From Heterodontus francisci (taxonomy: Eukaryota), in NCBI RefSeq assembly GCF_036365525.1, contig NC_090377.1, forward strand, positions 67,136,301-67,200,300: 64,000 nt of DNA, given 5' to 3'. Of this stretch, positions 1-42,030 are shown piece by piece (within the stretch, counting starts at the first letter, position 1; every line of letters starts with the position of its first letter). The notes beneath the pieces were generated by a model. It worked only from the letters and a program-made list of their open reading frames with translations, was not told where the DNA came from and made no database searches. Position numbers and translations under genes: made by a program.

Positions 1-29
1 CTAGCTGAGTCCTAAAGGACATAGCTGCT

Positions 30-165
30 TTAATAACAGCAAAATACCGCGGATGCTGGAAATCTGAAATAAAAACAAGAAATGCTGGAAATACTGAGCA
101 GGTCTGGCAGCATCTGTGGAGAGAGAAGCAGAGCTAACGTTTCAGGTCAGTGACCCTTCTTCAGA
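30..165 (-). mobile_element. Short Penelope-associated repeat carrying a minimal hammerhead core
   Basis: Perfect 11-bp TSD acatagctgct (19-29 and 166-176). Minus strand starts ctgaaga-a-gggtc-act-gacct-gaaac-gtt. Same family as 5071-5243 and 41878-41977. Confidence 0.8.
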
Positions 166-963
166 ACATAGCTGCTAGACTGGGTATGCGGCAGGTGGTG
201 AGGGAACCAACAAGAGGGAAAAGCATACTTGACCTCATCCTCACCAATCTGCCTGCTGCAGATGCATCTGTCCATGACAGTATTGGTAGGAGTGACCACC
301 GCACAGTCCTTGTGGAGATGAAATCCTGCCTTCACATTGAGGATACCCTCTATCGTGTTGCGTGGCACGACCATAGTGCTAAGTGGGATAGATTTCAAAC
401 AGATCTAGCAATGCAAAACTGGGCAATCTTGAGGCGCTGTTGGCCATCAGCAGCAGCAGAATTGTACTCAACCACAATCTGTAACCTCATGGCCCGACAT
501 ATTTCCCACTCTACCGTTACCATCAAGCCAGGAGACCAACCCTGGTTCAATGAAGAATGCAGGAGGGCATGCCAGGAGCAGCACCAGGTGAGGTGTCAAC
601 CTGGTGAAGCAACAACACAGGACTACTTGTGTGCCAAACTGTGTAAGCAGCATGCCACAGACGGAGCTAAGTGATCCCATAACCAATTGATCAGATCTAA
701 GCTCTGAAGTCCTGCCACATCCAGCCATGAATGCTGGTGGACAATTCAAGAATGAACTGGAGGAGGTGGCTCCACAAATATCCCCATCCTGAATGATGGG
801 GGAGCCCAGCACATCAGTGCGAAAGATAAGGCTGAAGCATTTGCAACAATTTTCAGCCAGAAATGCCGAGTGGATGATCCATCTCGGCCTCCTCCTGAAG
901 TCCCCAGCATCACAGATGCCAGACTTCAGCCAATTCGATTCACTCAGCGTGATATCAAGAAAC

Positions 964-1275
964 GGCACAGTGGCACAGTGGTCAGCACTGCAGCCTCACA
1001 GCTCCAGGGACCCGGGTTCAATTCTGGGTACTGCCTGTGCGGAGTTTGCAAGTTCTCCCTATGATCGCGTGGGTTTTCGCTGGGTGCTCTGGTTTCCTCC
1101 CACAGCCAAAGACTTGCAGGTTGATAGGTAAATTGGCCATTGTAAATTACCCCTAGTGTAGGTGGGTGATAGGGAATATGGGATTACTGCAGGGTTAGAA
1201 TAAATGGGTGGTTGTTGGTCGGCACAGACTCGGTGGGCCGAAGGGCCTGTTTCAATGCTGTATCTCTAAAAAAAA
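964..1275 (+). mobile_element. HE1-like tRNA-derived V-SINE inserted in the LINE
   Basis: A box tggcacagtgg, B box ggttcaattc, V-domain (ctgtgcggagtttgcaagttctcc...ggtttcctcccacag), CR1/HER1-type tail gggccgaagggcctgtttc and poly(A). The LINE frame resumes afterwards. Confidence 0.9.
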
Positions 1276-3444
1276 AATGACTGAAGGCATTGGATACTGC
1301 AAAGGCTAAGGGCCCTGACAGTATTTCGGCAATAGTACTGAAGACTTGTGCTCCAGAACTTGCCGCGCCCGTAGCCAAGCTGTTCCAGTACAGGTACAAC
1401 ACTGGCATCGACCCAGCAATGTGGAAAATTGCCCAGGTATGTCCTGTCCACAAAAAGCAAGACAAGTCCAACCTGGCCAATTATCGCCCTATCAGTCTAT
1501 TCTCATATATCAGTAAAGTGATGGAAGGTGTCATCAACAGTGCCATCAAGCGGCACTTGCTTAGCAATAACCTGCTCAGTGACGCTCAGTTTGGGTTCCA
1601 CCAGGGCCACTCAGCTCCTGACCTCATTACAGCCTTGGTTCAAACATGGACTAAACAGCTGAACTCAAGAGGTGAGGTGAGAGTGACTGCCCTTGACATC
1701 AAGGCAGCATTTGACCGAGTATGGCATCAAGGAGCTCTAGCAAAACTGAAGTCAATGGGAATCAGGGAGAAAACCCTCTGCTGGCTGAAGTCATACCTAA
1801 TGCAAAGGAAGATGGTTGTGATTGTTGGAGGTCAATCATCTCAACTTCATGACATCAATGCAGAAGTTCCTCAGGGTAGTGTCCTAGACCCAACCATCTT
1901 CAGCTGCTTCATCAATGACCTTCCTTCAATCATAAGGCCAGAAGTGGGGATCTTCGCTGATATTTGCACAATGTTTAGCATCATTCACGATTCTTCAGAT
2001 ACTGAAACAGTCCGTGTAGAAATGCAGCAAGACCTGAACAATATCCAGGCTTGGGCTGATAAGTGGCAAATAACATTCACACCACACAAGTGCCAGGCAA
2101 TGACCATCTCCAACAAGAGAGAATCTAACCATCTCCCCTTGACATTCAATGGCATTACAATCACTGAATCCCCCACTATCAACATCCTAGGGGTGCAGCT
2201 CCAACAACACTCAAGAAGTGACGCCATCCAGGACAAAGCAGCCCACTTGATTGGCACCCCGTCCACAAACATTCACTTCCTCCACCACTGACGCACAGTG
2301 ACAGCAGTGTGTACCATCTACAAGATGCACTGCAGCAACACACCAAGGCTACTCAGGCAGCACCTTCCAAACCTCTACCTCGACCACCTAGAAGGACAAG
2401 GGCAGCAGGTACGTGGGAACACCACCACCTGCAAGTTCCCCTCCAAGCCACACACCATCCTGACTTGGAACTATATCGCCATTCCTTCACTGTCGCTGGG
2501 TCAAAATCCTGGAACTCCCTTCCTAATTGCACTTTGGGTTTAGCTACCCCATATGAACTGCAGCGGTTCAAGAAGGCAGCTCACCACCAACTTCTCATGG
2601 GCAATTAGGGATGGGCAATAAATGCTGGCCTGGCCAGTGACACCCACATCCCATGAAAGGAATAACAAAAAGGCCCAAGATGCAGAAGTTCGAATGTTTG
2701 GAGTCCCTCAGCCATTTATGTCAATGGTCTTGTAAGGAGCAGGCAGAAGCTCCCACAGTACCATCCAGTGAATCCTGGGTGCAACGTTGGGACCAGACCT
2801 TATTGGATCCTCGTCTTACTCTCCAGCCATTCCAGATTAAAGTTTAACAATACTGCACAAAAATTTTAAAAGTATAAACCAACAGATATAAAATGAATAA
2901 ATTGTTGTGTTTTGACTTAGCCGAGAGTGGGTCTCATGAAGTATCTAATTAGAGGGTTCAGCTGACATTTATGCAGTTGTTCAGTCCTTGAAACTACAGC
3001 CTTGAAATTGCGCCTTAATTTTATTTTAAACAAATGATTTCAAATGCTTTATCTTTTTCTTTGCTTCAACTTATTACAAGAGAACATTTACAATACATGC
3101 AGTATCATATTTGAGCCTGTTGCAGGAAACAGATTTGCTGAACTAACTTGATCAAGTCAATGACACCCAGGTAGGTACAGTAGCCTGGCCATACTAGCCA
3201 TATAGCAGCAGCAATGTGCCAAACATCTAGCTGGCAGTGCATATCTGCATCATGCATTAGATGCCTGGGCCTGGGATTTCATTACTTTCTTCCTAGATGG
3301 TTGCTAGCAGACTAAGCCTATCCTCTGGAGTCTGGTTCGCATCAGCTTTGAAACACATAGAAACAAGACCTGAAGAGAAATACAATGAAGAACATGTAGT
3401 TACCAAGGCCTTGGAGCAGGAGACAACTAGTATACTGAAACAAG

Positions 3445-4160
3445 GGGGGGAATTTTATGCTCTCCCCTGCGGCAGGTATGGAAGCAGGGAGAGCATAAAA
3501 TCAGGTGGGATGGTAACGGAGGAGGTTCCCGCCACCTTCTCGCCTCCGCCTGTGAACAACCTTCCCACCTCGCCACCAATTGAGGCCCTTAACTGAGCAA
3601 TTAATGCCCAATTAAGGACCTCATCCTGCCGCAGCTGCAATTAGCCGTGCGGTGGGCGGCTGTTGCCGCACGGGAAGCACGGCACAAAAACTAAACAGGC
3701 TGCTTCCCAGGTCTGGGAGTGGCTCTCGTTAAAAGGCACTTAGTGCCTAAACAAGGGACCTGGCATTGGGAAGGGGAAGGGCTCCGCTGAGAGCCAACAC
3801 CCAACCCTTGCTACCGACCTGCCTACATCCCCCTCCCCTGCTGCCCACACCCCATGAGACCCCTCCTACCCTGACCTACATGTGGCCTGGACCTTGGGTA
3901 GGTACTGCTCTGGCAGCAGCCACCACCTCCGCGGTGGCACTGCTCAGTGGAACAGCTGCCGGCCTCTGATTGGCCGGCAGCTCTCCGAGGGTGGGAATTC
4001 TGGCACCAGGGTCTTTGATTCTGTGGAAGGCCGCCACTGTCCACTTAAGTACCTGATTGGCGCTAGATTCAACAGGACCTCCAGAGAAGAGGTGACACCG
4101 GTCCTCAGTGTCGCTTTATCCGCACATTGAGACCCCCGTTGCCAGCATCAAATCCCGGCA
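3445..4160. mobile_element. Harbinger-type non-autonomous element (MITE)
   Basis: Termini ggggggaatttt ... caaatcccggca, 3-bp TSD aag/aag, GC-rich interior sharing motifs with the other MITEs in the window. Confidence 0.7.
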
Positions 4161-4699
4161 AAGGCTTCTGATATCTCAACCCATCAGGGTCATTGTGCAA
4201 CCTGCCCAAAAGTAGCACTGATAAGTTATTGCCTGCTATGTAGTATAGAACTATGTGTTGCAAATGCACATTTGCCATGGATCATGAAAGAGAGGATCAC
4301 CCTCAACCACTGGCAGAAAAAGGTCCCAAACCCGAAGCCAGTAGAGACGTTTGCAGAACCACTTGTTGAATCAAGAAGCAGAGGGAGTATAAACTTAACT
4401 ACAGCAGGGGGCACAAAATGAGTGGTGCGGTCTAAGACTATTATATACCTGCTAATTTTCCCTCCCAAATGGATAACAAATCAGGCATTGTGTAGAATGG
4501 GCAGTTGGTTTGCTATCCGCACAATGTAATAAGGGCACCTTCATTTAAGTGACTGTACCATTAAATGTACAACTTACCTGCATTTGTGTCCAGTGTCCCG
4601 ACAAAAAGTTGGGATCATTACCATTGCCCTCAGCCTTATTTCAAGCATAATGAATAATACTGCATTGTTGCCGAAGTACACAATTTTGCCACAGCCCAA

Positions 4700-5660
4700 A
4701 TCTTGGAATGTGGCAAAGCAAATTGATAAGGTAGCTAAGAAAGCTAATTCTTTTAAAATGTACCTGGACATGCACCTGAAGTGCTGTAACCTGCAAGGTT
4801 ATGGACCTGGTGCTGGAAGGTGAAATTAGATTGGGTGGCTGGTTTTCGGCCAGCACAGACATGATGGGCTGAATGGCCTCCTTCTGTGCTGTAATTTTTC
4901 TATGGTTCCATGGCTACTTGGCTTAGTAAATAGGGACAATAAATATGATAACAAAGAAGTCATGCTAAACCTTTATAAATCACTGGTTCGGCCTTAGCCT
5001 GAGTATTGTGTACAATTCTGGGCACCACACTTTAGGAAGGATGTCAAGGCATTGGAAAGGGTATAGAGGAGGCTTGGCGGCATCTGTGGGGATAGAAACA
5101 CAATTAATGTTTCAGATCTGTGACCTTTCATCTGATTTCTCTCTCTCTGTTTCTCTCTCCACACATGTTGCCAGACCTGCTGAGTATTTTCAGCATTTTC
5201 TGTTTGTATTTCAGATTTCCAGCATCTGCAGCATTTTGCTTTAGTACAAAGGACGTTTAACAAGATGATACTAAGGATGAGGGACGTCAGTTATTTGGAG
5301 AGATTTAGTAGAGAAGGTTAAGAGGAGACCCAAAAGAGGTACTGAAAATTATGAGGGGTTTTGATAGAGCAGGTAGGGAGAGCCTGTTTCCTCTAGTAGG
5401 TAGGTTGGTAATCATAGGTGATAGACTTAAAATAATTGGCAAAAGAACGAGCGGGGATATAAGGATAAACTCACAACCTAAAAGAGTAGCGGAATCAGAT
5501 TCCATAGGAACTTTAAAAAGGCAATTTGTACTTGCAGAGGATTAACTTTCAGGGTTACGGGGAAATGCTGGGGTGTGAGACTAAATTGGATACTTTTTTT
5601 CAAAGCCAGCACAGGCACGTGGGGCTGAATGGCCTCATTCTATGCCATAAGATTCTATGA
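4700..5660 (+). mobile_element. CR1/HER1 LINE 3' fragments (two tails), interrupted at 5071-5243
   Basis: CR1 ORF2 C-terminal sequence (gagtattgtgtacaattctgggcaccacactttaggaaggatg) and tails gggctgaatggcctc...ttctatg. Confidence 0.8.
5071..5243 (+). mobile_element. Penelope-associated hammerhead repeat with inverted 5' portion
   Basis: 5071-5134 is the reverse complement of the element's 5' part and ~5145-5243 is forward. Flanks gtatagagga / gtacaaagga form an 8/10 TSD. Confidence 0.7.
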
Positions 5661-6049
5661 CGTCTTATGACACAATCGTGCATTTGTTCAGGTAAATTTT
5701 ATTTACCTTGTTCCGTATGGTGTCAGAGTAACAATTCGTATATCCTGCCATAGATACAAAGGTTTTGCTTAAATGCTTCCAACTCTTTTTAAGATGCTCT
5801 AGTTATAATCTATAATCACCAACATCTCTGTAACAGTGTAGAGGATGTTCTTTATGTATGATTTTTGACTGCAGTGAATCAAAGAGCAGTTCATTTCCTT
5901 GTTTCCGTTAAAGCAGGGCTACAACTTTCTATTACTGAGTGGACATAGCCTTTGTGGAACAAAAGTAATTACTCATCATTACCAAACAAGTGATTAAGAT
6001 ACCAAGAGGAGCTGGTGGAACAATATATTCATCAAGAAAGCATCATTCG

Positions 6050-6320
6050 AGCTTGGCAGAAGAACCAGAGGTGAGATAAGAAGAAATCTTTTTATGGAGC
6101 AAGTTATTACAATCTGGAATACATTGTCTGAAAGAGTTCTGGAAGCAGATTCAATAATGACTTTCAAAAGAGAATTAGATAAATACTTGAACAGGGCGAA
6201 AAATGGCAGGGCTATGTGAAAGGGCAGGAAAGTAGTATTAATTGGATAGCTTTTTCAAAGAGCCAGCACAAGTATTGATGTGCCGAATGGCCTCTTTCTG
6301 TACTATATCATCTTATGATT
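6050..6320 (+). mobile_element. Old CR1 LINE 3' end
   Basis: ctggaatacattgtctgaaagag...gccgaatggcctctttctgtact CR1 terminus. Confidence 0.7.
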
Positions 6321-6409
6321 ATCTTTCTTCATTCACATTAATCTGTCAACTCCTCCAGTCATCTTCAACACTTGTTTGGTCCAGAATAGTTGAAATTGGG
6401 TTATTAAAA

Positions 6410-6630
6410 AAATGAACCTGTTTTTATATAGCACCTTTCACATTTTCAGGATTTTCCAACCTACTGTCTATCTGAAAAGGCAGATGTGCTTCCGTTAAGT
6501 ATCTCATCCGAAAGACAGAACCTGGGACAATGTAGCATTCCTCAATACTCCTTAAGACCATAGAAGGGTTTAAATCTCAACCTGTTGACTCACATGCAAG
6601 AGTGATACCAACTGAGCCAAAGTGACAGCA
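6410..6630 (-). mobile_element. Deu-SINE (SacSINE1-like) fragment, internally deleted
   Basis: Reverse-complemented L2-type tail (tttatatagcacctttcac), Deu core (tctcatccgaaagacag) and tRNA head (ccaactgagcca). Confidence 0.6.
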
Positions 6631-8299
6631 AGCCAAAGAGCTGAATGTTTTAACTGACGGTTTCAGGTGAGTGGCCAACATCACAAACTTATTATCAGTG
6701 ATTTCCTCTTCTTATTTGAAGATAAAACACTACTGATGCACCCACTGTTTGGTTTAGTCAGCAATCAGAATGATCTCACCCAGTTCTTGAAGCAGAGGGG
6801 TCTACGGCACTTCCATGAGGATAGAGTGCATTTCTTTGACCATCAGAAGACCCAGACCCACTAATCTCATTTTATCACCTGGTTCCAGCCAGAATTAGGT
6901 CATCCAAAATGCAGAGAACTAAGATAATTTTTTCATGTAAATAAAATGTATGAGTACACTATAAACAATAAGCATGGGATTCAAATGAAAGTCATGAACT
7001 CAGGCTAATAGTTTTATTAGGAACTTTCAAAGTGTAGGGAAATGATGGCAGGGCAATTTATTTTCTCAGCATTCACAAATTAAAATGGACCAACTGGTTT
7101 CAAGTACACTGGTTTATTATTGGCAGTTTAGGGAACAAAAACATTTTGCACTATCCCAAAGAATTTTGGATTCTGAAGCGTAACTGTATGCCAGGTCTAG
7201 AAATCTACATCAACACTTCCACTTGTGGAGACACATGCATAAGTATGTATATCTTTTCCTCTGTTCACTAATATTAATGAAAAGGTCAGTAAAAACTAGA
7301 AGATGGTTTCCCCATTAATGCTCATGTCACAAACATTTGTAAGTACAGGAACATACAAACTTTAAAACTGGATTTCATCTTAACTAGGAAAAATATACTC
7401 AGTTCTATATCTGTTGGTTATCTAGAAAAGATTAATGAAAGGAAACAGATAATTGTAACTTTGGCCAATACAGTAAAAAAACAAAAAATGCATGGAAAAA
7501 GACAGGATGTTCTGATGTATTTGATATTGTTAGATTGGCAGATAATTGATGTACAAAATATGTCCAAACTGTTGTAATAATGGAACAAAATGTAATGCCA
7601 AAAATGAGATTGAGGATCATTTCTAGAAAGGATACAAATACCTTCATTTCATTTTATATTCAGATCACAAACACTTCTGAGGCCTTGCCTTCCCTTCCCT
7701 AACCTCCTCCAGCATCATAATTTCAACTATCTTCAGCTGCTTCATCAACGGCCTTCCTTCCATCACAAGGTCATAAGTGAGGATGTTCAGTTCTTTTTGC
7801 AATTCCTCAGAAACTGAAGCAGTCTGTATCCAGATGCAGCAAGACATGGACAACATTCAGGCTTGGGCTCACAAGTGACAAGTAACATTCACGCCATAAA
7901 AGTGCCAGGTAATGACCATCTGCAACAAGAGAGAATCTAACCATCTCCCCTTGACTTTCAACCAAATTACCATGCCTGAATCCACTGCCCCCAACATCCT
8001 GGAGCCGTCATTGACCAGAAACTTAACTGGACTTAAATACTGTGGCTGCAAGAGCAGATCAGAGGCTGGGTATTCTGTGGCAAATTACTCACCTCCTGAC
8101 TCCTCAAAGCCTTTTACCATCTACAAGGAACAAGTCAGGAGTATAATGGAATACTCGCCACTTGCCTGGATGAGTGTAGCTCCAACAACACTCAAGAACT
8201 CAACCCCACGCATGACAAAGCAGCCCGCTTGATTGGCATCCCATCCACCACCTCAAACATTCACTCCCTCCACCACCAATGCACCATGGTTGCAGTGTG

Positions 8300-8515
8300 T
8301 GTTAATCATATAGTAATTGAGTATTGAATTGTATTCAGGTTGGTGGGCAACAACTGGGGATTCACTTGTGCTCCTATATATAGGAGCAGACTGTGGTTTT
8401 TGGGTTAGGAGGTGCATGTTTGTAATGTTTGTCTCTGTAAATAAAAGCTTATAAGTGTGCAAAAATTAGGGGCTCCAGTTCTATCCTTTACCACCTGGTT
8501 ATTTGGATTAGAACA
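8300..8515 (+). mobile_element. Short solo LTR-like insertion
   Basis: Starts TGTT, ends AACA with imperfect inverted ends (tgttaatc / gattagaaca), internal AATAAA near 8440, and interrupts the LINE. Confidence 0.55.
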
Positions 8516-8543
8516 ATGGTACAATCTAGAAGATATACTGCAA

Positions 8544-9008
8544 TAAAGGCCTGCTCAGGTCACGAGAAAAAAACCCGACCCAAACCTGACAGAACCACAT
8601 CGGACCCAAGCCCGACCCAGCCCAAGTCCTTCCATTTTTTCCCACGCCCCACCTGACCCGAGCCCAACCCGACCACCGGAATGTTCCCTTTACCTACCTT
8701 GCGACTTCCAATCTTCAGGAAGCTGCAGCATGAGCGTGATGACATCATCGAGACACTCACTCGCTCACTGCGCATACTCGGAGTTTCCCTCCTTGACGCC
8801 CCGGACTCCCAGCTCAGGTAGGTTTTTTACTTTTAACACTTCTTGCTGTGTGTGTCCGACCTGGACCCTGCCTGACCCAGACCCGGCCCGACCAGGACGC
8901 TGCCCGACCCGACCCGAGCCCGAACGCTGGACCCAGAAGAGCAACCCCACCCGAACCCGACACATGTCGTCGGGTCCCACCGGGTTCGGGTTGGGTAGCA
9001 GGCCTTTA
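8544..9008. mobile_element. hAT-type MITE with CCCGA subterminal repeats
   Basis: Perfect 12-bp TIR taaaggcctgct / agcaggccttta, 8-bp TSD tactgcaa / cactgcaa, many cccga/tcggg motifs. Confidence 0.85.
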
Positions 9009-9339
9009 CACTGCAAGAACCCACTAAAGCTTCTTCAACAGCACCTTCCAAACCCTCAACCACTACCATCTAGAAGAACAAGGGCAGTAGGCACATGGGA
9101 ATACACCACCTGCAAGTTCCCTTCCAAGTCACCACCATCCTGACTTGGAAATATATTGATGCTCCTTCACTGTTACTGAGTCAAAATCCCTTCCCTATCA
9201 GCAGTGTGTGTGTACCTACACCACATGGACTGCCATCTTCTCAAGGGCAATTAGGGATAAGGATTAAATGCTGGCTTTGTCAGCAACCCCTACATCCCAA
9301 GAACAAGTAAAAAAAAATCCTAAATTCTGGATTTGTCTG

Positions 9340-9630
9340 TCTCTGCACTCCTAGCTATCCCCCACCCAGTCTTTCCCCAACTATTAGTGGCTGTGCTCCC
9401 AGTCACCTAGGTTCCACTCTTTAGAATTCCCTCCCTAAAGCTCTCCCTTTCTCCACTTCCTTCTCCTCCATTCAGATTCTTCTTAAAACCCATGACTCTG
9501 AACAAACCTTTGGTCACTACTCGTAATAGTTCCCTGCTTGGGTCAGCACCTATTTTTTTCCTTACACCTCTGTGAAGCACTTTTGGATGTCTTGTACATT
9601 AAAGAGACTATATAAGTTGTGGCTGTTGTT
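9340..9630 (+). mobile_element. L2 LINE 3' end
   Basis: gaattccctccctaaagct...tgtgaagcacttttggatg...ctatataagttgt L2 terminus. Confidence 0.7.
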
Positions 9631-13519: not shown

Positions 13520-13550
13520 ATCTGATGAAAGGTTACCAACCTGAAACGTT
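13520..13550 (+). ncRNA. Minimal hammerhead ribozyme core (fragment of the Penelope-associated repeat)
   Basis: ctgatga-a-aggtt-acc-aacct-gaaac-gtt, immediately followed by a MITE terminus gggttgaatttt. Confidence 0.6.
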
Positions 13551-21413: not shown

Positions 21414-22306
21414 TGTTTTATGACTGAGGCTGGAGGAATGCATCTTCTTTCTCTAGTCCCACTTCTCCATGAGTCACAACATATATTTAAATGCTTTACC
21501 CAGTTACTGGTATAGCCAATTATATACTTTATTTTAATTTCAGAATAAAATCCACCAACCAGGTTTCTTTAATAAACAACAAAAGTATTCATTTATTATT
21601 AAACAAGAATTAGTCAATAAAGATGCAAAGCTTTAACACACAATTTGAAATATGACAGTAAAGATATATATTCCCTTCTAAGTACCCAACACACACACAA
21701 ACACACACCAATTAAAGGAAAAATAAAGATGCTTTGGCCAAAGTACTTGTTAATTCTTGAAGAAAAAGGATGATATGTTATATTCCAGATGGCATACAGT
21801 CTGGTGTCCGAGTACATGTAGACAGGTCACTGGGATCTTTTCAGAAGCAGTTCGTTCAGGAGATGTCGAGAAGAAGTCTTCCAGAAGCTTCTCAGGCAAA
21901 ATGCTGCTTCAGTTTCTCTATTTCTTACAATTGATTCTCAGGGTTTCTCAAAGAGGTGAAATAAGATGAGCTGGGTGCTTCTCTCTTAGCAGGCTTACCC
22001 CCCCAACTGACTCAAAGCAATCTTCAAAATGAAAGCAATTCTTGACCACCATAAATCATGACATGTCACTTCTCTGTAAACAGCTCCCCCTAGTCACTAA
22101 GGCTTTTGCCGTTTACTTGAGCTTTCTGTTTACTTAGCTGAAGGCTAAGTAAACAGAAAGCTCAAGTCCCAAAGTATTTTCGGTGATCCTTTAAAAAAAA
22201 ACATAGTCCAGCACCTATTTAATCACTTCAATCCTCCAAATGAATACTACAATCTGCAACCACGAGTCCTCAAAACATTTTTAAAAATAGAAGCACTTTC
22301 ATAACA
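21414..22306 (-). mobile_element. Solo LTR (Gypsy-like)
   Basis: TGTT...AACA ends (tgttttatga / tcataaca), poly(A) signals on the minus strand, no internal coding sequence. Confidence 0.6.
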
Positions 22307-25475: not shown

Positions 25476-25499
25476 TTACTTATTTACATATGAAGGTCA

Positions 25500-28015: not shown

Positions 28016-29344
28016 CTTTTGGGCCTCCTTATCTCGAGAGACAATGGATACGCGCCTGGAGGTGGTCAGTGGTTTGTGAAGCAGCGCCTGGAGTGGCTAT
28101 AAAGGCCAATTCTGGAGTGACAGGCTCTTCCACAGGTGCTGCAGAGAAATTTGTTTGTTGGGGCTGTTGCACAGTTGGCTCTCCCCTTGCGCCTCTGTCT
28201 TTTTTCCTGCCAACTACTAAGTCTCTTCGACTCGCCACAATTTAGCCCTGTCTTTATGGCTGCCCGCCAGCTCTGGCGAATGCTGGCAACTGACTCCCAC
28301 GACTTGTGATCAATGTCACACGATTTCATGTCGCGTTTGCAGACGTCTTTATAACGGAGACATGGACGGCCGGTGGGTCTGATACCAGTGGCGAGCTCGC
28401 TGTACAATGTGTCTTTGGGGATCCTGCCATCTTCCATGCGGCTCACATGGCCAAGCCATCTCAAGCGCCGCTGACTCAGTAGTGTGTATAAGCTGGGGGT
28501 GTTGGCCGCTTCAAGGACTTCTGTGTTGGAAATATAGTCCTGCCACCTGATGCCAAGTATTCTCCGAAGGCAGCAAAGATGGAATGAATTGAGACGTCGC
28601 TCTTGGCTGGCATACGTTGTCCAGGCCTCGCTGCCGTAGAGCAAGGTACTGAGGACACAGGCCTGATACACTCGGACTTTTGTGTTCCGTGTCAGTGCGC
28701 CATTTTCCCACACTCTCTTGGCCAGTCTGGACATAGCAGTGGAAGCCTTACCCATGCGCTTGTTGATTTCTGCATCTAGAGACAGGTTACTGGTGATAGT
28801 TGAGCCTAGGTAGGTGAACTCTTGAACCACTTCCAGAGCGTGGTCGCCAATATTGATGGATGGAGCATTTCTGACATCCTGCCCCATGATGTTCGTTTTC
28901 TTGAGGCTGATGGTTAGGCCAAATTCATTGCAGGCAGACGCAAACCTGTCGATGAGACTCTGCAGGCATTCTTCAGTGTGAGATGTTAAAGCAGCATCGT
29001 CAGCAAAGAGGAGTTCTCTGATGAGGACTTTCCGTACTTTGGACTTCGCTCTTAGACGGGCAAGGTTGAACAACCTGCCCCCTGATCTTGTGTGGAGGAA
29101 AATTCCTTCTTCAGAGGATTTGAACGCATGTGAAAGCAGCAGGGAGAAGAAAATCCCAAAAAGTGTGGGTGCGAGAACACAGCCCTGTTTCACACCACTC
29201 AGGATAGGAAAGGGCTCTGATGAGGAGCCACCATGTTGAATTGTGCCTTTCATATTGTCATGGAATGAGGTGATGATACTTAGTAGCTTTGGTGGACATC
29301 CGATCTTTTCTAGTAGTCTGAAGAGACCACGTCTGCTGACGTGG
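28016..29344 (-). mobile_element. 5'-truncated RTE-clade (RTE/BovB-like) LINE, very young
   Basis: Uninterrupted RT frame, short 3' UTR, and a perfect 101-bp flanking duplication (27915-28015 and 29345-29445). Confidence 0.95.
28066..29344 (-). CDS. RTE reverse transcriptase C-terminal part (5'-truncated, open frame)
   Basis: GVKQGCVLAPTLF, LLFADD, FTYLGS, LLYGSEAW, RLRWLGHV and C-terminal CxxC...HxxxC finger (CSTCGRACHSRIGLYSHSRRC). The frame stays open upstream of Met 29253 to the junction. Confidence 0.9.
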
Positions 29345-29419
29345 TCAAGACTTGTCCAAAATTTGCTGCAGATACTGCTTCAGAGGTCAGCTATCTCATC
29401 CAGACATGTAGTCAGTATG

Positions 29420-30720: not shown

Positions 30721-32484
30721 TTGTTGCTACAATTTGCTCACTGGAATTGATACAAGCCTGTTTATAGTCTCTTGGTGTTAGTTTATCTCAGCCGATAATA
30801 CTCAAGCTACTGAGAAACTTTTGCACACTTGTCAGGTTTCAATTTGGCCAATATCAAGTGCATAATCTCTCCATGTAAGGACACATTCTTGTTTACTGTA
30901 ATACTAAAAGCCGAAGTGCAAATTGGCAGAGCAAAGACTCAGGAATCCTCAACTGGGAGGGCTGGAGCTGAACCAGAGCAGACCACTGGTAAATCTATAG
31001 TTCCTTGTCTGGCTAGGATCATCCTATCCATTAGGATTGTATTAAGAAAAAGCCAGGTGCTATAATGGGAAGACAATGGAGTTTATAGTTTGGTAGGATT
31101 AAGTCAAATGGGGTAAAATATCTTCATACAAAACTATCTTGTGATCACACGTACAAATGACCTTTAGCTGAATGGCAACTTAGCTTATCTTCTGTTGGTC
31201 TCAGAGCAGTGAATCACTGAAGCTCAGCAGCACACATAAGAAGACAATTTCATTTGGTCCCCGATGAGATGCTACAGCTGTGCATTTGTGGGATGAAGAT
31301 ATCGCCAAGAAAAGGAAAACAATTAAGACACCTGCTGACAGCCACTTATAGAGCAGGATTGAATGCAATTATGGGCAAGACGATGGAGCAAGCTACTAGT
31401 TTTAAGCAGATGAGTATCTTCCCAAGGAAAGATAAAGAGGAACATAATTTAGAAGTTTTTTTTACTCTATTTTGAATCACCAATCAACTTGCACTAATAG
31501 CAAATTATACATGCCTTTCAAAAATTATTTGCGGAAAAAACCTTTGAGATACAGTCCAACGCCGTCTTTCGCATATATACTTCAACAATCCCCCCAATGG
31601 CATACCGATCAAACACATAGTGAGACAAGACTTCACAGCAATCAATACGCCCCCAATAAAGTAAGCATATAAAACTGCAATTACGATCGAACTCATTTAC
31701 TTCAGTTAGTACGACTTGTCTTTGACAAACTGAGCATGCTACACTTCCCCACATAAGCAGGTTGTCTGATTTGACTTGAGCAAAATGGTTCCTAACTACC
31801 CTCTCTTGTGTTCCATCCTTTTCAGTGCTCTTTCTGCCTCACTGCCTGTGCCTGACTCTATCTACATTTATCTCTTGTGGTTCATAGCCAGAAAAGGAGA
31901 GCCAGCCAGATCCCTTGCTGAACACCCTGGACCAGCAATTCTCCAACACAATGGCTGTGAGTCATTTATCAAATATTAAGACAAGCTAGTGAACAACTCA
32001 TCACCAACAGTGCATAAGGAAACAACATCAAAGCTAGCTCATTAGCATCTGAACAGCCTATCATCTCAGAGCCTACTTTTTAAACTTGTGTGAAAACAGT
32101 GTGTTTTAAACAGGATATTTAAAGGGAACTTTTTTGAACCAAAACAGATCAATGGTTAAAAGATCACTTTGGCAGATGGGAGTTAAATGAGAAAGGGAAA
32201 GCAAATGCAGCATGGCATAAGAGATTTGCTGAAACTAACACAACACACAATATCCAGACCTAGAACAGAGTTTCTGCTCTTATCAAAAGAAAATCTTGCT
32301 ATAATTGGATTCAATGGACTGCTTCTGACATAAAAGATGGAATTTTAACCCACCCTGCCCAATGGGCGTGTAGAAGGGGCATAGTTAATATGGTTGTTAA
32401 AGACTTAATGTAGGCACCATTTTAATTAGATGGTTTGTTAGGCAACCATGGTGCCCATCGGAGTCTGGGAGAGAGTCTCATGAA

Positions 32485-33735
32485 CAACTATTTATATCTA
32501 TATAGCGGCTTTCATGTAATAAAACACTCCAAAGCACTTCACAGGAGCATTATAAAACTAAGTACGACACCAAGCCATAAAAGGAGATATTAGGTCAGAT
32601 GAGGTTGGTGTGAAGGAGTTTCTTAAAGGAGGAAAGTGAGGTGGAGAAGTGGAGAGCTTTCGGGATGGTATTCCAGAGCTTGGGGCCTAGGCATCTGATA
32701 GTGCGGCCACCAATGGTGGAGCAATTAAAATCAGGAATGCACAAGAGGCCAGAATTAAGAGGAGTGCGGATATCTTGGAGGATTGTGGAGCCGGAGGAGA
32801 TTACAGAGATCGAGAGGGGTGAGGCCATGGAGGGATCTAAAAACAAGAATGAGAATTTTAAAATTAAGACGTTGCTTGACTGGGAGTCAACCTAGGTCAG
32901 CAAGCATTGGGGTTAAAGAGGAGTGGGACTTGGTGCAAGTTAAGACACAGGCAGCAGAGTTTTGCATGACCTCAAGTTATAGAGAATGAAATGTGGAAGA
33001 CCAGCCAGGAGTGTACTGGAATAGTCAAGTCTAGAGGTAGCGATGGCATGAATGGGGGTTTCAGCAGCAGATGAGCTGAGACAGGGGCGAAGTCAGGCGA
33101 CATCATGAAGGTGGAAATAGGCGGCCTTAGTGATGGCACGAGCCTAAGGTCGGAAGCTCATCTCGGGGTCAAATATGACACCAAGGATGTGCACAAACTG
33201 GCTTAATCTCAGACTCTTGCTAGGGAGAGGGATGGTGTCAGTAGATAGGGAAACGGAGTTTGGAGCAGGGAAAGAGGCTTCAGTCTTCCCAATATTTAAT
33301 TGGAGAAAATTTCTGCTCATCCAGTACTGGATGTCAGATAAGCAGTCTGATAAGTTCGCAACAGTGGAGGAATCGAGACAAGTGGTGGTGAGGTAGAACT
33401 GAGTGTTGTCAGCTTACATGTCAAAACTAAGGCTGTTCTTTTGGATGATGTCTCCAAGGGGCAGCATATAGATGAGAAATTGGAGGGGGTCAAGGATAGC
33501 TCCTTGGAGGACACCAGAGGTAATGGTGCAGGAGCAGGAAGAGAAATGCAAGTGCTTCTCTGGCTATAATTAGATAGATAAGAATGGAACCAGGTGAGAG
33601 CAGTCCCACCCAGCTGGATGACAGCAGAGAGGCATTGGCGGAGGATGGTGTGGTCAACCCTGTCAAAGGCTGCAGACAGATCAAGAAGGATGAGGAAGGA
33701 AAGTTTATCTTTGTCACAGTCACAATGGATGTCGT
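32485..33735 (-). mobile_element. L2 LINE 3' ~1.25 kb
   Basis: Reverse L2 terminus and RT remnants ([34 protein letters not shown]). Confidence 0.88.
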
Positions 33736-34195
33736 GAAGAAGTGCTAATTAGAGTCTTATGGTGTCCATAGAATCCCGATGGCATTTTAATGGCCTGTTA
33801 AGCAGGGCATCTCCTGCAGCAGTCCCACTCAGTGAAAGCTGGTAGGAAAGAAGAGGAGGTCTCCGAAACAAAAACAGGAGTGCTCCTCTGGACCCCACAA
33901 GGAATCTGGACATCAGCTGACCTAGGATCCCCTTCCACTTCCCACTCATGAAACAACACCAAATCACCTCCCTGAACCCACCCTGCACCATACCTGGTTG
34001 ACACAGACAGTCTCCAGCAGCTGTGATATTGACCTGCCCACAGCCAGGCAGCTGTCTCTTTCAAACTGTTTTGGGTGGGTAGCTAGCCGGAGTGATTTAA
34101 ATGAGGCCTGCCAGCTATGGCCTCCCATGGAGGCTCCAGAGCAGGAAGATCACTTGCTCCACCTGACTTACTACCTGGGTGATCAAAATCCACCC

Positions 34196-34811
34196 GGCCA
34201 TGGGGAAGAGACTGTCGCCCACCTCTGTCTGGAATGTGCCTTTGTAAAGCAGGTCTGGAAAGAGATGCAGTAGTTTTTGTCCAGGTTCACTCTGAGCAGC
34301 TCTAGAATACAGGACTCTGCTTTACAGGCTGTTCCCAGGGACACACACCAAGATAAACATTAACTGCTGCTAGTGGACCATCAACTCAATGAAAGACGTA
34401 CTTTGACCTGCCGAAACTTGCTGGTCTTCCGGTGCTAAGAGCTGACCACGACCGAGTGTTGCAGGCTGGCACATTCCAAGGTCCAGGACTATGTGCTGAT
34501 GGACGCACTAAAGCTTGGGGCAGCCGTCGCCAAGGCTCAATGGGGAAAGGCCACTATGTAAGGCCCTCCCACCATAGTATACTGAGGGGCTTGAACCTGT
34601 GTAAAACCCCTCAGGCTATATGCACTGGAGAATATTTTACATGAAATGTAAATATACAATGTAAATATAACCTGTAATGGCAAGTGTTGTGAAGCACCTC
34701 ATGTACTGTATTGAAAGAAACCGATCTGTATTGCATTTTATGTAATGTCAAATTTGAACTGTTATGTAATGTAATTTTACAAATTTTATGAATAAAGTAT
34801 ATTTTTGGAAA
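34196..34811 (+). mobile_element. Tx1/L1-group LINE 3' end
   Basis: GEETVAHLCLECAF (zf-RVT CCHC), AATAAA plus A tail, TSD aaaatccaccc / aaaatccactc. Confidence 0.85.
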
Positions 34812-35924
34812 AAAATCCACTCTGCTATATTTATGTAGCTTTTTAAAAAAATATATTTTGACACTGTGTGTAGTAGAATGTGGAAGATTACAGTTAAGGC
34901 ATCATGGTGGCGGGATAAGAATTTAACTCTCCTTGTTTAGTCAGAACAGAACAGGGAGCAGTTAAAATGGAGTGACTCCGTTGCTGCATATTTGCACTTT
35001 CAATTTCACTGGTTTTGGTCAGATAAGTCTCTGTCGGAATCACACAGGAGCGTTTTCCATTAATGCTAATTGAGGTCTATGATGTCAATAGGACCCAATG
35101 GTGTTCTAACTGGAACCTGAGCAGGGAATCTGCCTTGGCTTTCCTGGCAGGCTGAAGCAGGTCAGCAGCTGGTACAATGGACAACAAGGGGAATTACTCA
35201 TTGAAGCATGTCAGTAGTCTCTCAAACATTGTGACCAACTGTAAGAAGTAGGGATGTTAGTATTTATAGAGTCCTTATGCATATCTTAACACCATTACAA
35301 TCCATGATCAAATTTTACATTTTCTTTCTCTCAATCCCTATGATCAAGATTACTGAGAAATAAATCAGTGCTGACATATTAGAAATAAGGAAACCTTAAA
35401 CAACATCTTATCTACCAGAACCATATGTAATACAATTTTATCAACCAGGCAGAAATGCATAATTACAACCTGGATCAAGTATTCTTTCTTTTGAAGTAAA
35501 TTGAGAAGCTTTTCTTATAATGACTTTAGTATTGATAAATACTAGGCCCTATGCAAAGAATATCTTCATGCATCTTGTATTCAGGGAGACCAAGTCAAGT
35601 TAAAATCTATTTAGATCCATCCAAAATATTTCATGGTTAATAACTAAAGTAACTGTCTTGTTTACAAAGATGAAATAGTAGATTAGATTAGTTCAGGTTT
35701 GAACAAATATCTCTGAGAATTTATTATTCTCATGGAGAGAAACATTTGGAATAAGTAGGCAATAAAGAAAAATTATCCTGAGCAAGGCCCTGATTTTCAA
35801 AGAGTAATTAAATATGTGTCACAACTGAATAGTTTGTGTGAAAACCAAACAACAAGATAGATCAAAGATCTTTAAAACAAAATTGGAATGTTATTTGATA
35901 ACGAATGTAGTTGATGCTTCTCTT

Positions 35925-36435
35925 TTTTATTCATTCTCAGGATATGTGCATCACTAGCAGAGCTGACATTTATTGCCCTGCCTTAGTTTCCCTTGAGAAG
36001 GTAATGCTGAGCCCTCATTTTAAACTGCTGCAGTCCATGTGGTCAAGGGATTCCCACAGTGCTATTACGTAGAGTTCCAAGACTTTGACCCGGTGATAAA
36101 GGAATATATCCAAGTCAGGATGGTGTGTGACTTATAGAGGGGAGCATAGAGATGGTGGTGCTCCCATGCACCAGGTGCCTCTTCTAGGCTCTGGAGGTCA
36201 AGAGTCTTGGAAGTGCTGCTGGAAAAGCCTTGTTGAGTTGCTTCAATGCATCCTGTAGATGGTATGTACTGCAGCCATGGTACACTGGTGGTGGAGCCAG
36301 TGGATGTTTAAGCTGGTGGATACCTTACCAAAATAGCACAGTACTTTGTCCTGGATGGTGTTGAGTTTCTTGGGGGTTATTGTAGCTGTACCCATGCAAG
36401 CAAGTGGAGCATATTCCATCACACTCCTGACCAAC
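35925..36435 (-). mobile_element. CR1-group LINE 3' end (family of 1-2670)
   Basis: VRSVMEYAPLACM...KLNTIQDK and the reverse-complemented tail. Confidence 0.8.
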
Positions 36436-36767
36436 GTAGCCCCTAATTTTTTTCTAGTGCACAGGGGATTTGTTTAAGTATGCAGGCCCTTTAATTTTTC
36501 TTGCATGGCTGTGCACAGGTGGTAATTTAAACAGGCAACTTTCAGGAACTTACCATCAAGTATAATACGCCTGTCCTCTTCTGCTTTGAATGCTGATAAC
36601 AGTAGTAGTGAAAAAGTTCCAAGATTTTTGTTACGCTCCAAAGCAGCAGACTGGTACAACGTCTCTGCATGTAACAGAAAATGCATAGGGGTAATGTTCA
36701 TATTTCAATAGCTAGTTCAATCCTAAATCATTAACACAGAAATACCAGCTGTTTGACAAATAAAATG

Positions 36768-36770
<3 letters not shown>

Positions 36771-36816
<46 letters not shown>
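36771..36816. repeat. (TA)n(GA)n microsatellite
   Basis: About 17 TA units followed by about 6 GA units. Confidence 0.95.
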
Positions 36817-38228
36817 AATGTATGGAATAAATCAAGTTTATACTGTTTGATAATTGAACTTTCTATTATAAAAATTGACAAAAATTACAGGAAATATGTG
36901 GTTGGTAACAGTCTTTAGTAACCTCTCCTGCTGTTCATTAAATCTTATCATGTGAGCTGTGTATCAATGATGGAATGTTCTCCACTCGTGAGGTACATTT
37001 AGTCATCAGTCAGGTGACTAAAAACTTAAGATTAGTCTTAAAAGTCTGACATAACACATCAATAATATATTAAGTTCAATACACAGGTCAGGGATTTCAT
37101 TGAAAACTCATTTCAAGTATCTAAATTACCTCTTACAGTTGGTGATGTTGTGATATGTATTTTCAAAATTGTAAGTGACACATTTCCCTGTTGCAGTCTA
37201 TGGCCTACACATAACTGCTATTTCATATTGAGAGTAGATCGCGCTGTGAATGAATCATCTGACCACAAGGTTCTCACAAATTGTTCAAAATGTTTACTGA
37301 TTTTTTCTTCATCCATCAGATTTTCTCAGTAACTGAGTGAAGTCCACTTTGGTAGGAAACATAAAAAAGCAGAATAATTTTTGAATGGTGAATGGAAATG
37401 TTTGCATTTGTCCTTATAAATGAATAACAGAAAGTTAACATGCAGGTACACCAAGCAATTAGGAAGGCAAATAGTATGTTAGCCTTTGTTAGAAAGGGAT
37501 TGGAGTATAAGAGTAAAGAAGTCTTACTACCATTATACAGGGCATTGGGGAGGCCACACCTTTTGCATCTTTGAATGCCTTATGTAAAGTTTTTATTTGA
37601 AGGTGTTAGTCTCTTCCAAAAGCCTGTATTGCACTTGACCTCTTTGCTCATTGTTGTGGGTCTATGAAGTGAATTTGGATTGTGCAGCCTGAGCATGTAC
37701 AGTGCACCTAATTTCCTGGATGAATCATATTGTACAGTTTCATTAGATTCCTAAAAATTTCTTCTAAAGACTAAAGGGATTCTCGATGGTATCCTGGCCA
37801 GTATTTACACATCAACATAACAGATTATCTGGTCATTATCACCTTGCTGTTTGTGGGATTGTGACGACAATTCAAAGATACTTAGTCAGCTGTAAACCAC
37901 TTCCAGACATCCTGAGATTGTGTCAGGTGCAATATAAATATAAGTCTTACTTTTCCTATTTTCAAAATCATCGAAAGAAGAATTAGAAGACAAATTTCAG
38001 CATCCTTATTCAGGTAAAATGTTTATGTTTTTTAAACAGAGAGGCCGTGTGGGTGTGTGTGTTAGAAAAAAAACAGACTGCTAATTACACGCCCAGTGTA
38101 CCTTTGTTTTGGAGCAAAGGAGTTGACTTTGATGTGAGTCCTCAAATTCTCCATCTCTCTACCTCTCTTTCCTCTTTTATGACACCCCTTAAAACTGACC
38201 TCTCACCTGTCCTACATCACCTTATGTG

Positions 38229-38831
38229 CCCACTTCCTTCTGGAATGTGTCTTTGCAAAGCAGGTGTGGAAAGAGATGCAGTGGTTTTTGTCAAGGGTCA
38301 TCCCAAGCAGCTCTGTAACACAGGAGTCTGTACTCTACGGGCTGTTCCCAGGGACGCACACCGAGATAAACATCAACTGCTGCTGGAGGACCATCAATGC
38401 GGTGAAAGACGCTCTTTGGTCTGCCCGAAACTTGCTGGTCTTCCAACGCAAAGAGTTGTCCACGACCGAGTGTTGCAGACTGGCACATTCCAAAGTCCAG
38501 GACTGTGTGCTGAGGGACGCACTAAAGCTTGGGGCAGCCGCTGCAAAGGCTCAATGGGTAAAGACCACTGTGTAAGTTCCTCCCACCAAAGCGAACTGAG
38601 GGGCTGGACCCATGGAAACCCCTCGGGTTGTATACACCAAATATGGTTTTGCTGTAAAATGTACCTGGCAGGTAAAATGGAATGGAAGGGTTGTGGGGCA
38701 ACTCACTCCTGTATGGAAGAAAACTGATTTCCTTTGCACTTTTCGGAATGTCAACTTGGTGCTGTTTTGAACTTTTTTGTAATTTTTATTTTACAGATTT
38801 TTATGAATAAAGTATATTTTGGGAAAACAAA
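38229..38831 (+). mobile_element. Tx1/L1-group LINE 3' end inserted in an L2 tail (38145-38950)
   Basis: ORF 38264-38575 homologous to 34196-34560, AATAAA tail, TSD atcaccttatgtg / atcatcttatgtg. Confidence 0.88.
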
Positions 38832-39689
38832 ATCATCTTATGTGGCTCGATGTCAGTTTTGTTTGATAACTCTCCTGTGAAGAGCCTTGGGATCTTTTAC
38901 TATGTTAAAGATATTATATAAATGCAAGTTGTTGTTGTTATTGTTGTTGATCTGTCACTTACCGGATGGAAGCAGCCAGAAGCCTGAACCATTTTTATGG
39001 CCTAATTGGATTTCTATCAACAAGCTGCTCATGCACTCCCAGCAACTCACTAATCAAACAGGGTGGGAAATCTAGAGGCCCACCTCGTCCAGGTAGATTA
39101 AGGGGTGAGGGAGGGGCAAGGCAATCTTGGGGAGGACAGCAGAGGGCCATGCACTATGGGGAGTTGATTTTTGCTTGCCAGATGTAGCATTAATCATTTA
39201 AAAAGCTTTTTTGTCAACACCTTTAGTCTTTTAAGGACCTCTGGTTAGGCTGTTCTACAGCAAGTACCAACGGGAGGATCGTGAGCAGCACATATAACCG
39301 TCACTAGCACTTTAAAATTGCATTGGGCCCTATTGACATCATAGGACCCCAATTTGCATAAGATGTTAATGCTCTTGCCTGTTTGCAGCGAGAGCCAGGA
39401 ATACCTAATTCAAGGCCCTCACCAAAATAACGGCTGTCTGACCATCAACGGGAAGGTACGATAAGTGCGCACCCCCGGTTCCAGTACACTTATTACCCCA
39501 AATGCAACCAAAAACAGGGATGAAAATCGCTCCCAGAGTGTTGTTCCTCATTGTAACTGAGCTTATTTTTTAAAACAAAATTAGTTCAATGTTGAAACAA
39601 ACAAGCTTCAATAATCCCTAATTATCAGATCTCATGTTGACTGTGAGGCATGTAATCATTCAATAATAGCTATCAGAACCAGAGACAGA

Positions 39690-40248
39690 GGGTTGGATTT
39701 TATTCCGGTGATGGGGGACCCCGGAAGGCAGGAGGAGAACCCACCTCGGCCCTCCATTGGACCCCCATTGCTATTTAACGATGGGCAGCCAATTAACAGC
39801 CTTTAAGGGATGATCTCCTGCCTCCAGAGCTGCTTGCAATCAGACGGCCAGCAGCTCTGCATTACCAAGGACAGGTAAGTGGGGTCACCGGGACCAATCA
39901 GGCAGGCCCCGGAGAAGGGGTAGGTGGGGGGGGCTAGTGAGGGTGGAGGGGTGGTGGTCTTACAAGGAGGCAGCCATCACCACCAGGGGGAACCCTCTGG
40001 GACCTTTGGCTTGCCCCCAAAGGAGGGATCCCCCCGACCCTGCTCAGAGGCTGCATTTTCACGCAGAAACAGGCCCCTCCGACATTAATAAAATTGGTGG
40101 AGGTGGGAAGAAACCCTTAAGTGGCCATTAATTGTCCACTTAAGGACCTCAATTGACCTGGGGCAGGAAGGCCATCCTCGGCACCCCTTGCCATTTTATT
40201 TGCCCCCATCTCCCTGCCCGTCTCCAAGGGCAGGATAAAATCTTGCCC
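39690..40248. mobile_element. Harbinger-type MITE
   Basis: TIR gggttggattttat / ataaaatcttgccc, TSD aga/aga. Confidence 0.8.
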
Positions 40249-41346
40249 AGAGAAACAATATTTTTCCTGATCTTAATTCTTTAAAATAAAAAACAAATTT
40301 CAATTTGTAAGCTCTAATTATTGCCTGTTCTTTGTTTATAGCTAATAATTAGAATGTCTACATTTCATACACCTATGGGAGAGACAGACACAGAGATACA
40401 GATCTTGGCACTAATCACAAATCACCCAATTCAATGCTCACAGGGATTGCTAAGAAAGTCACAAACCATTGCTGTCACACAAGCACTTCCTGCACTCAAT
40501 GCTGTCAAGCCCATGCCCAGCCCCTTTTGACTGCTGACAGACACCAGGAATTTACCAGTGAGCCAACCTCACATCGAAACCCCAGATGTGCTAAGCCTCA
40601 GCTCTACCTGCCATGGTCCTGCTAAACCCAAAATTATTTCCCCATCATAATATCAGATCAAAAGAATCCCCATGTTGCCAATCTGCAATCATGTCAAACA
40701 CTGGATCATTCCCCAGTGCCACCAAGGCAAGGACTGTTCCCGCCATTACTGCAAAATATCAGGCATCTCCCTCCAATTCATGCATCTCGCATACCATCTT
40801 GTTTTCTATTCACAGCTTTAAAAATTGCAAGAGATAAAATATAAATACAAATAGGTAAAGGAATACATATATAAAATATGTAAAGGTCGTTCATTTACAG
40901 AAAAAGCAGAATACTGCAGATGATCTGAAGTAAAAACAAAAATATCCTGGAAAAATGCCAGGCAGCAACTGTGGAGAGTGGTCCTTTGTCAGCAACCAAT
41001 TCCAACTTTTTAAGGGTAAAGATACAGTCAACTGGTTAAGGTGCAGTCAAATATTGTTGGTGATTCAGGGTCTGCTGTCAAGAACCTTTAATTTCTTAAT
41101 TGATACAAAATACATATGTAAAACCAATAAATTCAATAATGAATTAATGGTTGATGGTCATAAGACAACTCTACACATACAGTACACCAACTTATTACAA
41201 GTACAATAGGTCAGGTGTCAGCCATGATTCAGTAGTAGCGCTCTCTCCTCTTGAGTCAGAAGGTTATGGGTTCAAGTTCCATTCCACAATATCTAGGATG
41301 CTACTTCAGTGCAGTACTGAGGGAGTAATACATTATCAGAGGCGCT

Positions 41347-42030
41347 GGCCGGGATTTAACTTGGGGCGGAGGGAAGGCGGCCACTGACTTTTCAGTCGGT
41401 GGCGAACCCGCTTCCGCCTTGCCTGGGGATCCGACCCGTATTTTGCAGGACGCTGGGCTTTAACTGGTGTGAGATGGACTTCCACCTGCTTGAGGTAGGA
41501 AGTCCTGCCTAATAGAGCTGCTGGCCAATCAGCGGGCCGGCAGCTAACTATTCCAGCAGCACCACCAGGTGCGGTGGCCACTGCTGGGACTACAGCCCAG
41601 CTTGAAGAAGAAGACGTCAGGGAGCACGGAACAAAGGTAAGTTTTGGTTGCCTCGCCGGGGGTGATCGATCGGGTCCCGGCAAGGGTGGTCAATTGGGTG
41701 GATGGTGGAGGGGGGAGCATGTTGGGCATGGTTGGGGCAGCGGGGGTGGCCCACCATCGGGACAGGGTGCCTGATCATGAGAGTCCTCCTGTGCAGTCAG
41801 AGTGCCGTCTGCTTTTGTCAGGAGGCTTCTCTCGAGCCTCGGCCGCCCAACTAGTGATAGGTAAAGCCTCCGTGGAGATTCTGAAGAAGGGTCACTGACC
41901 TGAAACGTTAACTCTGCTTCTCTCTCCACAGATGCTGCCAGACCTGCTGAGTATTTCCAGCTTTTCTTGTTTTTATTTAAAATCTCCGTGGAGGCGGGCA
42001 AAGGCGTTTAAGTGGCCACTTAAGGGCCTT
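41347..42030. mobile_element. Harbinger-type MITE (right end lost) inserted into a Deu-SINE head (41215-41346)
   Basis: Terminus ggccgggatttaac. Shared motifs (gccaatcag, ttaagtggccacttaa) with 3445-4160 and 39690-40248. Confidence 0.7.
41878..41977 (+). mobile_element. Penelope-associated hammerhead repeat
   Basis: Core at 41881-41909 is identical to the reverse complement of 136-164. Flanking duplication taaagcctccgtggag / taaaatctccgtggag. Confidence 0.8.

Follow-up and report, generated by a model that had tools for sequence, protein, structure and literature searches.

Dispersed hammerhead-bearing repeats in Heterodontus francisci are terminal pieces of a Penelope-like element

Minimal hammerhead ribozymes are carried by the pseudo-long terminal repeats (pLTRs) of metazoan Penelope-like elements (PLEs), and thousands of dispersed single motifs have been ascribed to truncated PLEs (Cervera and De la Pena 2014, PMC4209133). 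Here we examine a repeat of this kind in a 64,000-nucleotide stretch of the Heterodontus francisci genome (the window: RefSeq assembly GCF_036365525.1, contig NC_090377.1, positions 67,136,301 to 67,200,300, forward strand). An earlier note, made from these letters alone, had read the repeat as a non-autonomous short interspersed element (SINE)-like family that starts at the ribozyme. We find that the short ribozyme-bearing repeats, or stubs, are pLTR end pieces of a 3.3-kb PLE encoding reverse transcriptase (RT) and a GIY-YIG endonuclease (EN), and that this parent is a further EN+ PLE with an already known minimal hammerhead. Element positions are numbered from C3 of the hammerhead core (CUGA), taken as position 0.

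According to the published descriptions of EN+ Neptune and Nematis PLEs (Craig et al. 2021, PMC8557442; Arkhipova et al. 2013, PMC3846280), these elements share with ours one open reading frame (ORF) for RT plus a GIY-YIG domain at the C terminus, a zinc-finger linker, partial tandems, inverted 5' copies and a 30-40 bp tail at one end only. Solo pLTRs are noted there as well, and a TATA box with an initiator-like motif has been proposed in the pLTR of Adineta. The Poseidon element PAc of Anolis, as reported by Frangieh et al. (2024, PMC11167929), likewise has two internal RT start sites downstream of its hammerhead, which define the tail; both target strands are cut and extended, and uncleaved RNA is the dominant template in vitro. 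Unlike the present element, PAc is placed in the Penelope/Poseidon clade and has an ORF beginning in stem II; the long ORF found here opens at +168, behind an upstream ORF of 30 codons, and its linker is of the form Cx4Cx2C. Non-LTR retrozymes, as described in PMC7229834 and bioRxiv 10.64898/2026.07.22.740005, are also small, non-coding, equipped with a type I hammerhead and linked to PLE pLTRs. Retrozymes, however, are tandemly repeated, and processing at the ribozyme turns them into circles. The copies studied here are dispersed, share continuous sequence with an autonomous element and have their start 33 nucleotides (nt) upstream of the cut site.

The family itself is ordinary, since PLE hammerheads and dispersed truncated copies have already been published. 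Its value is mechanistic: it bears on PLE integration and on the role of the hammerhead, both open questions in the PLE literature cited, and its tens of thousands of junctions permit base-level predictions, namely an RNA start at -4, opposite target strands primed at +97 and at +132, an uncut template, and U4 versus C4 cores. We found no earlier description of cap-ended Penelope stubs in the literature searched, whose coverage excluded most subscription papers, Repbase and supplements.

The parent element and its hammerhead

Five copies of the repeat, A to E, were located in the window with BLAST and nhmmer. Among the 30 closest genomic copies, several extend upstream through a 3' untranslated region into GIY-YIG and RT coding sequence, which bears out the Penelope origin proposed in the earlier note, and one runs downstream into the beginning of the ORF. 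A full pLTR-ORF-pLTR unit of 3,292 bp is found at locus L231; partial tandems with pLTRs are present there and at L108, and exact pLTR-ORF junctions occur at 2,145 sites genome-wide. In five of seven full units the ORF is open for 904-924 codons, its first ATG lying at +168. Six units with a CCGA core (discussed below) are 96-99.5% identical to one another and 88-89% identical to L231. Homologues of the ORF are proteins of about 900 amino acids with PF00078 (RVT_1), many also with PF01541 (GIY-YIG), and are alignable across its whole length; two of them, P0004 and P0013, both with PF00078 and the latter also with PF01541, are 48-52% identical to the element's ORF over the full length. Five frameshifted fragments of L231 gave no match when scanned directly against Pfam, and a PDB sequence search returned nothing meaningful. 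The linker motif CNRRRCNTC (Cx4Cx2C) is present in six of the seven units. PMC8557442 defines the Neptune and Nematis clades by a zinc-finger-like CX2-5CxxC linker between RT and EN; by that definition the linker motif points to a Neptune/Nematis type. An inverted 5' neighbor accompanies 21 of the 94 3'-anchored copies described in the next section.

Three pLTR-ORF junctions at 3,296-bp spacing (G000:C1:104038116-104044731; L278, L279) form a multi-unit tandem. The upstream ORF runs from +51 (element +51 to +170; L231:998-1117), and its start is contained in window positions 41932-41978; its stop is common to all junction copies listed. A pyrimidine tract with CAG at its end, resembling a 3' splice site, precedes both the upstream ATG and the main ATG; no intron joint was seen among the RNA-contig joints listed. 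Internally deleted copies, in which a 5' piece is joined to a 3' pLTR or stub (L093:4450-5085; L240, L250, L276, L283, L286, L293, L300), are consistent with template jumps.

The minimal type I hammerhead with palindromic stem III recognized in the earlier note is upheld: helices I and II surround the core, ACGU lies at +24..+27, and longer copies supply stem I as AGUU/AACU, a 4-bp helix with each pair kept in 113-119 of 120 copies. Across 73 distinct long copies, 95.6% of stem cells are paired. The minimum-energy fold of -4..+36 has a 4-bp helix I, a 5-bp helix II and an open core; the monomer fold leaves no room for stem III, and the predicted free dimer prefers an intermolecular stem II duplex, an inactive form. 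The hammerheads described in PMC4209133 have the same core, the same unpaired nucleotide between 9 and 10.1, a 4-bp helix I and a palindromic 15.2-16.2 without a loop. Three features depart from that description: a helix II of 5 bp closed by a 3-nt loop, a 10.1-11.1 pair that differs between lineages (A-U, G-U or G-C), and U4C in the open-ORF lineage.

Covariation, expected by the earlier note for the stems, is weak overall, appearing at 10.1-11.1 and at none of the other stem pairs. Among the 73 distinct copies this pair is G-U in 37, G-C in 19, A-U in 15 and other in 2, with A-C in only 3 of 298. The covariation score was 0.109 against 0.088±0.008 and was reached in 0 of 500 shuffles, which ignore relatedness; two-sided change occurs in two cells only, and the 10.1-11.1 variation is that of two lineage events.

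The core CUGANGA/GAAA/UH is present in window copies A, B and C and absent from copy D. Searched as CTGANGA-N14-GAAACGT, it occurs at 39,795 sites in the 6.0-Gb genome, far above the 114 of a reversed control, in keeping with the abundance supposed in the earlier note. The form with a CCGA core (U4C) outnumbers it, with 48,586 sites against 121 for its control. All five open-ORF units have the CCGA core, full units of this form including L301, L268, L272, L278 and L295, and this lineage also has the canonical G10.1-C11.1 pair. Counted by eye, 72 of 100 listed CCGA sites are identical as against about 20 of 100 listed CUGA sites, making the CCGA form the more uniform. Mean divergence over +0..+95 is 3.1% for CCGA, not separable from the 3.0-3.7% of the G-U lineages, and 6.7% for the A-U lineage. 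Derivation of the CUGA form from CCGA by CpG decay was rejected: positions 1-2 read TG in 54, CG in 6 and CA in 2 of 65 copies, compared with CG 40, TG 11 and CA 10 at 25-26, a CpG that truly is decaying. According to PMC3088659, U4C considerably lowers activity in vitro but still permits viroid infectivity.

Ends of the copies

The boundary sample was selected by an exact 27-nt anchor at +58..+84 (29,486 genome sites), with no requirement for the core. The sample comprises 94 of the 104 anchored copies collected; the other 10 came from core-selected loci outside the listed range and were dropped. The 5' starts of the 94 are non-random: 32 fall within 0..-6, compared with 29 on the downstream side of 0 and 33 at more upstream positions, 10 of which lie beyond -520, in the GIY-YIG coding region. 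The end rate per nucleotide is 0.070 at 0..-6 compared with 0.001-0.006 upstream and 0.003-0.004 for +9..+57 apart from +29 (p=2e-20); it is 0.021 at +1..+8. The clustering of 5' ends just before CUGA, first noticed on the window copies, is therefore real, in that 32 of 94 copies begin 0-6 nt before the core. A defined non-autonomous family is not what these counts describe, given the 33 copies that pass the boundary upstream, the 29 that start inside or after the core, and the lineage variants held in common with long copies. At +29, the start expected from ribozyme cleavage, we counted one of the 94 anchored copies and none of a set of 69 ORF-continuing copies; on these counts and a tandem period of 3.3 kb, identity with the non-LTR retrozymes was rejected.

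The boundary at -4 is also the first base of helix I, where pairing starts, failing at -5. It recurs inside composite copies: once filler is discounted, all 10 same-strand jump junctions have a core leader that starts within -3 to -6 and is joined to internal element sequence, in nine cases well away from a pLTR. A G stands before AGTT in 6 of the 10 (4 not explained by the reference). At L374, L366, L384, L310 and L133 the first 5-12 nt of the element are repeated at the 5' junction, as if RT had re-primed several times at the template end.

The 3' ends of the 94 copies fall near +97 (43) or near +132 (42), alike in short and long copies; these positions agree with the tail of PLEs and with the pair of internal sites at which RT is reported to start in the anole Poseidon (PMC11167929). 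We excluded 9 of the 54 head-to-head pairs because they were flagged as extending into the ORF, and in 7 more an arm was of a different length. Of the 38 classifiable pairs, 37 combine an arm ending near +97 with an arm ending near +132 (p=1e-10), and the arms of window copy D (68 and 129) fit this pairing loosely. Taken with the finding in PMC11167929 that the anole protein cuts and extends both strands, the pattern suggests that both target ends were primed, one site each. Target-site duplications (TSDs) of 10-18 bp flank 28 of the 70 short non-inverted copies listed.

Origin of the short copies

We consider it probable that the stubs are cDNAs that were primed at +97 or +132 and ran off a predicted capped RNA start at -4. 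The upstream pLTR would supply a TATA-like box, at -33, that directs RNA polymerase II to start at -4; RT would then prime internally, by analogy with the anole Poseidon, at +97 or +132 near the RNA 5' end, from both target strands and on uncleaved element RNA. The cDNA would run off the capped end, cap copying would leave an extra G, and the resulting stubs, lacking the TATA-like box, would be dead on arrival. Any cutting by the hammerhead is predicted to need a dimer and to fall after +28, so that the first 33 nt would be lost together with the cap.

Promoter-like motifs occupy the appropriate positions. Against consensus motifs, TAWAA is found at -33 in 102 of 120 long copies and YYANWYY, with its A at -4, in 113 of 120, placing the TATA-like box 29 nt before an initiator-like boundary; the chance of this geometry at a given boundary is about 0.002. 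In unit L301 a single TAWAA lies within -400..+200.

Base -5 is C or T in 113 of 114 long copies and G in none, so that a G or A there is untemplated. Copying of the cap is known to leave an extra G in L1. Genome-wide, G outnumbers A at -5 by 2672:1648 in the CUGA lineages and by 3629:1649 in the CCGA lineage (ratio 1.6-2.2), compared with 1597:1532 at -6 and a ratio of 0.75 in flanks (-5 versus -6, odds ratio 1.56, p=2e-20). At 30+30 CCGA loci a lone inserted G was found in 6 of 30 and a lone A in 2 of 30, and many of the A cases go back to slippage that copied the beginning of the element. Head-to-head repeats have been explained by antisense self-priming, and some solo pLTRs by recombination or deletion, in Arkhipova et al. 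(PMC3846280); relative to that account, the TSDs, the G excess and the +97/+132 pairing found here favor sense-RNA priming from both target ends.

Several observations weigh against a capped-start origin. The ends are scattered over -6 to +8, and each boundary was placed with an uncertainty of 1-2 nt. In the 69 ORF-continuing copies the peak is weaker, with 7 ends at 0..-6 and 27 between +140 and +30; those 7 are drawn from 36 copies at risk, still about six-fold over -7..-50, and the repeated end calls at -232 and -328 in this set are probably indels relative to the references. The 3' anchor favors CUGA lineages, and the survival curve of 5' ends applies to these lineages. When any filler is counted, untemplated junctions are equally common before A (15 of 23 resolved) and before G (15 of 24 resolved); G at -6 also exceeds background (1.04 versus 0.75); 24 of 30 older G loci have no TSD to test; and junction bases are non-random elsewhere too, with T at -4 in 19 of 29. 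Short and long copies are also not alike at +72, +82 and +85, three sites with nominal p<0.05 (best p=0.002). No transcript start was seen in the RNA data, which are assembled contigs and cannot show starts; four were aligned to L108, where depth is much greater over the stub than over the ORF and loose ends lie near -3, +95 and +130, and for three of the four runs the RNA origin was guessed.

A more far-reaching version is possible, though we hold it only tentatively. In it the hammerhead would be the literal 5' end of a capped Penelope mRNA, and a dimeric RT-endonuclease would prime both cut strands, at +97 and +132, yielding strong-stop-like cDNAs that jump into stubs, palindromes and tandems. 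The ribozyme would then act as a dimer-triggered, self-decapping brake, weakened by U4C, with the fold kept, in the most abundant, open-ORF lineage.

The best-surviving rival, although unlikely, is an ordinary hotspot of 5' truncation, where RT stalls or is released at a hammerhead fold held by protein or a partner RNA, or where the endonuclease cuts. The coincidence of the boundary with the end of helix I would suit it, as would the 13 of 78 copies that end at +1..+8. The anole protein is reported to cut its own ORF-pLTR junction DNA and to assist its hammerhead (PMC11167929), which fits as well. An RT traveling toward the RNA 5' end would enter the fold near +33, yet few copies end there. 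RNA folds are expected to stop RT on entry. Neither the G excess nor the TATA-like/initiator geometry is predicted by a truncation hotspot.

Amplification in trans of an independent SINE- or retrozyme-like family from short masters starting at the hammerhead, as envisaged in the earlier note, appears improbable. The sharp 5' boundary and the TSDs would be natural in such a family, and the mild differences between short and long copies at +72, +82 and +85 lean the same way. However, short (84) and long (67) chromosome-1 copies share variants at 1, 4, 8 and 20 (p 0.10-0.79), and both 3' ends are common to long copies; the boundary recurs at jumps inside ORF-bearing copies; and the flanks of short copies are mutually unrelated. 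Unit L301 has no B box and no A-box match in its head, as the earlier note had said of RNA polymerase III boxes, and the TATA-like box lies outside the stub. A separate master is thus unlikely, because variants are shared, polymerase III boxes are lacking and the boundary recurs within composite copies; SINE identity, tried as a candidate, was rejected for want of A and B boxes in L301 and, judged by the shared variants, of a lineage of its own. Nor did the choice between a defined unit and random truncation, as first framed, capture the outcome: the ends are non-random and, under the capped-start reading we prefer, made anew from the RNA of the autonomous element.

Formation of the 5' end by RNA processing is the least credible rival: long copies do carry a pyrimidine tract that finishes with CAG at -3, and the end of a D. 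virilis Penelope intron is mapped in PMC4209133 to the 5' end of helix I, but hammerhead cleavage predicts the +29 starts that are nearly absent, while for splicing at CAG -5..-3 the stubs usually retain AG, share no common upstream exon, and show no canonical intron joint among the RNA-contig joints listed.

In runs X1, X2, X8 and X9 (L108:6900-7900), contigs from other organisms and a metatranscriptome hold the stub with similar boundaries, and the stub family is likely shared among relatives.

Copies and other features in the window

Copy A is a pLTR stub at 30..165 (-), about -1 to +133, with the optional 35-nt tail; its core occupies 136-164, with C3 at 164, and exact 11-bp TSDs flank it at 19..29 and 166..176. 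Copy B, at 41879..41978 (+), runs from -2 to about +97 with no tail; its intact core is at 41881-41909, with cleavage predicted after 41909. Its exact 10-bp TSDs lie at 41868..41877 and 41984..41993 and extend to 15 bp if two mismatches are allowed.

Copy D is a head-to-head pair, with a core-bearing arm at 5067..5135 (-), about -1 to +68, and an inverted arm at 5145..5248 (+), about +31 to +132, with tail. The shared CUGANGA core reported for four copies holds at 136-164 (-), 41881-41909 (+) and 13522-13550 (+), and fails at 5106-5134 (-), where copy D reads CAGAUGA...GAAACAUU, a broken core that has lost U4 and the stem III palindrome. Likewise, of the three copies said to have 10-16 bp flanking duplications, A and B do; the third, copy D (5061-5070/5244-5253, 8 of 10 matches), was rejected as not above chance, a match of this quality being reached by 24% of random window pairs.

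Copy C, at 13521..13550 (+), had been counted as a unit of 100-170 bp and is in fact a 30-bp core-only fragment without the 3' strand of stem I. The compensatory C-G to U-A change described for it is present; as a subfamily trait it was rejected, being found in 0 of 298 collected copies and 0 of 100 listed sites (by eye), and it looks private to this copy. The suspected degraded fifth copy near 40900-40995 was confirmed as copy E, a decayed stub at 40901..40996 (-) with a remnant of the first half of the core at 40992-40983, a deletion, and then the 3' part with tail. TSD searches at 13522 (copy C) and 40900 (copy E) found none, and an Rfam scan of the window returned no hammerhead match at E<=5.

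Elsewhere in the window, a pair of repeats at 963-1269 and 56996-57344, 92-93% alike, has a tRNA-like head (Rfam tRNA, 24.5 bits at 56997-57069) and is probably a true SINE. Fragments of long interspersed elements bearing RVT_1 lie at 1281-2291, 28066-29379, 45448-45984 and 51314-51889, and none of the 11 window ORFs scanned matched a host-gene family. A near-perfect hairpin with 23-bp arms at 22115-22167 gives weak microRNA-like Rfam matches.

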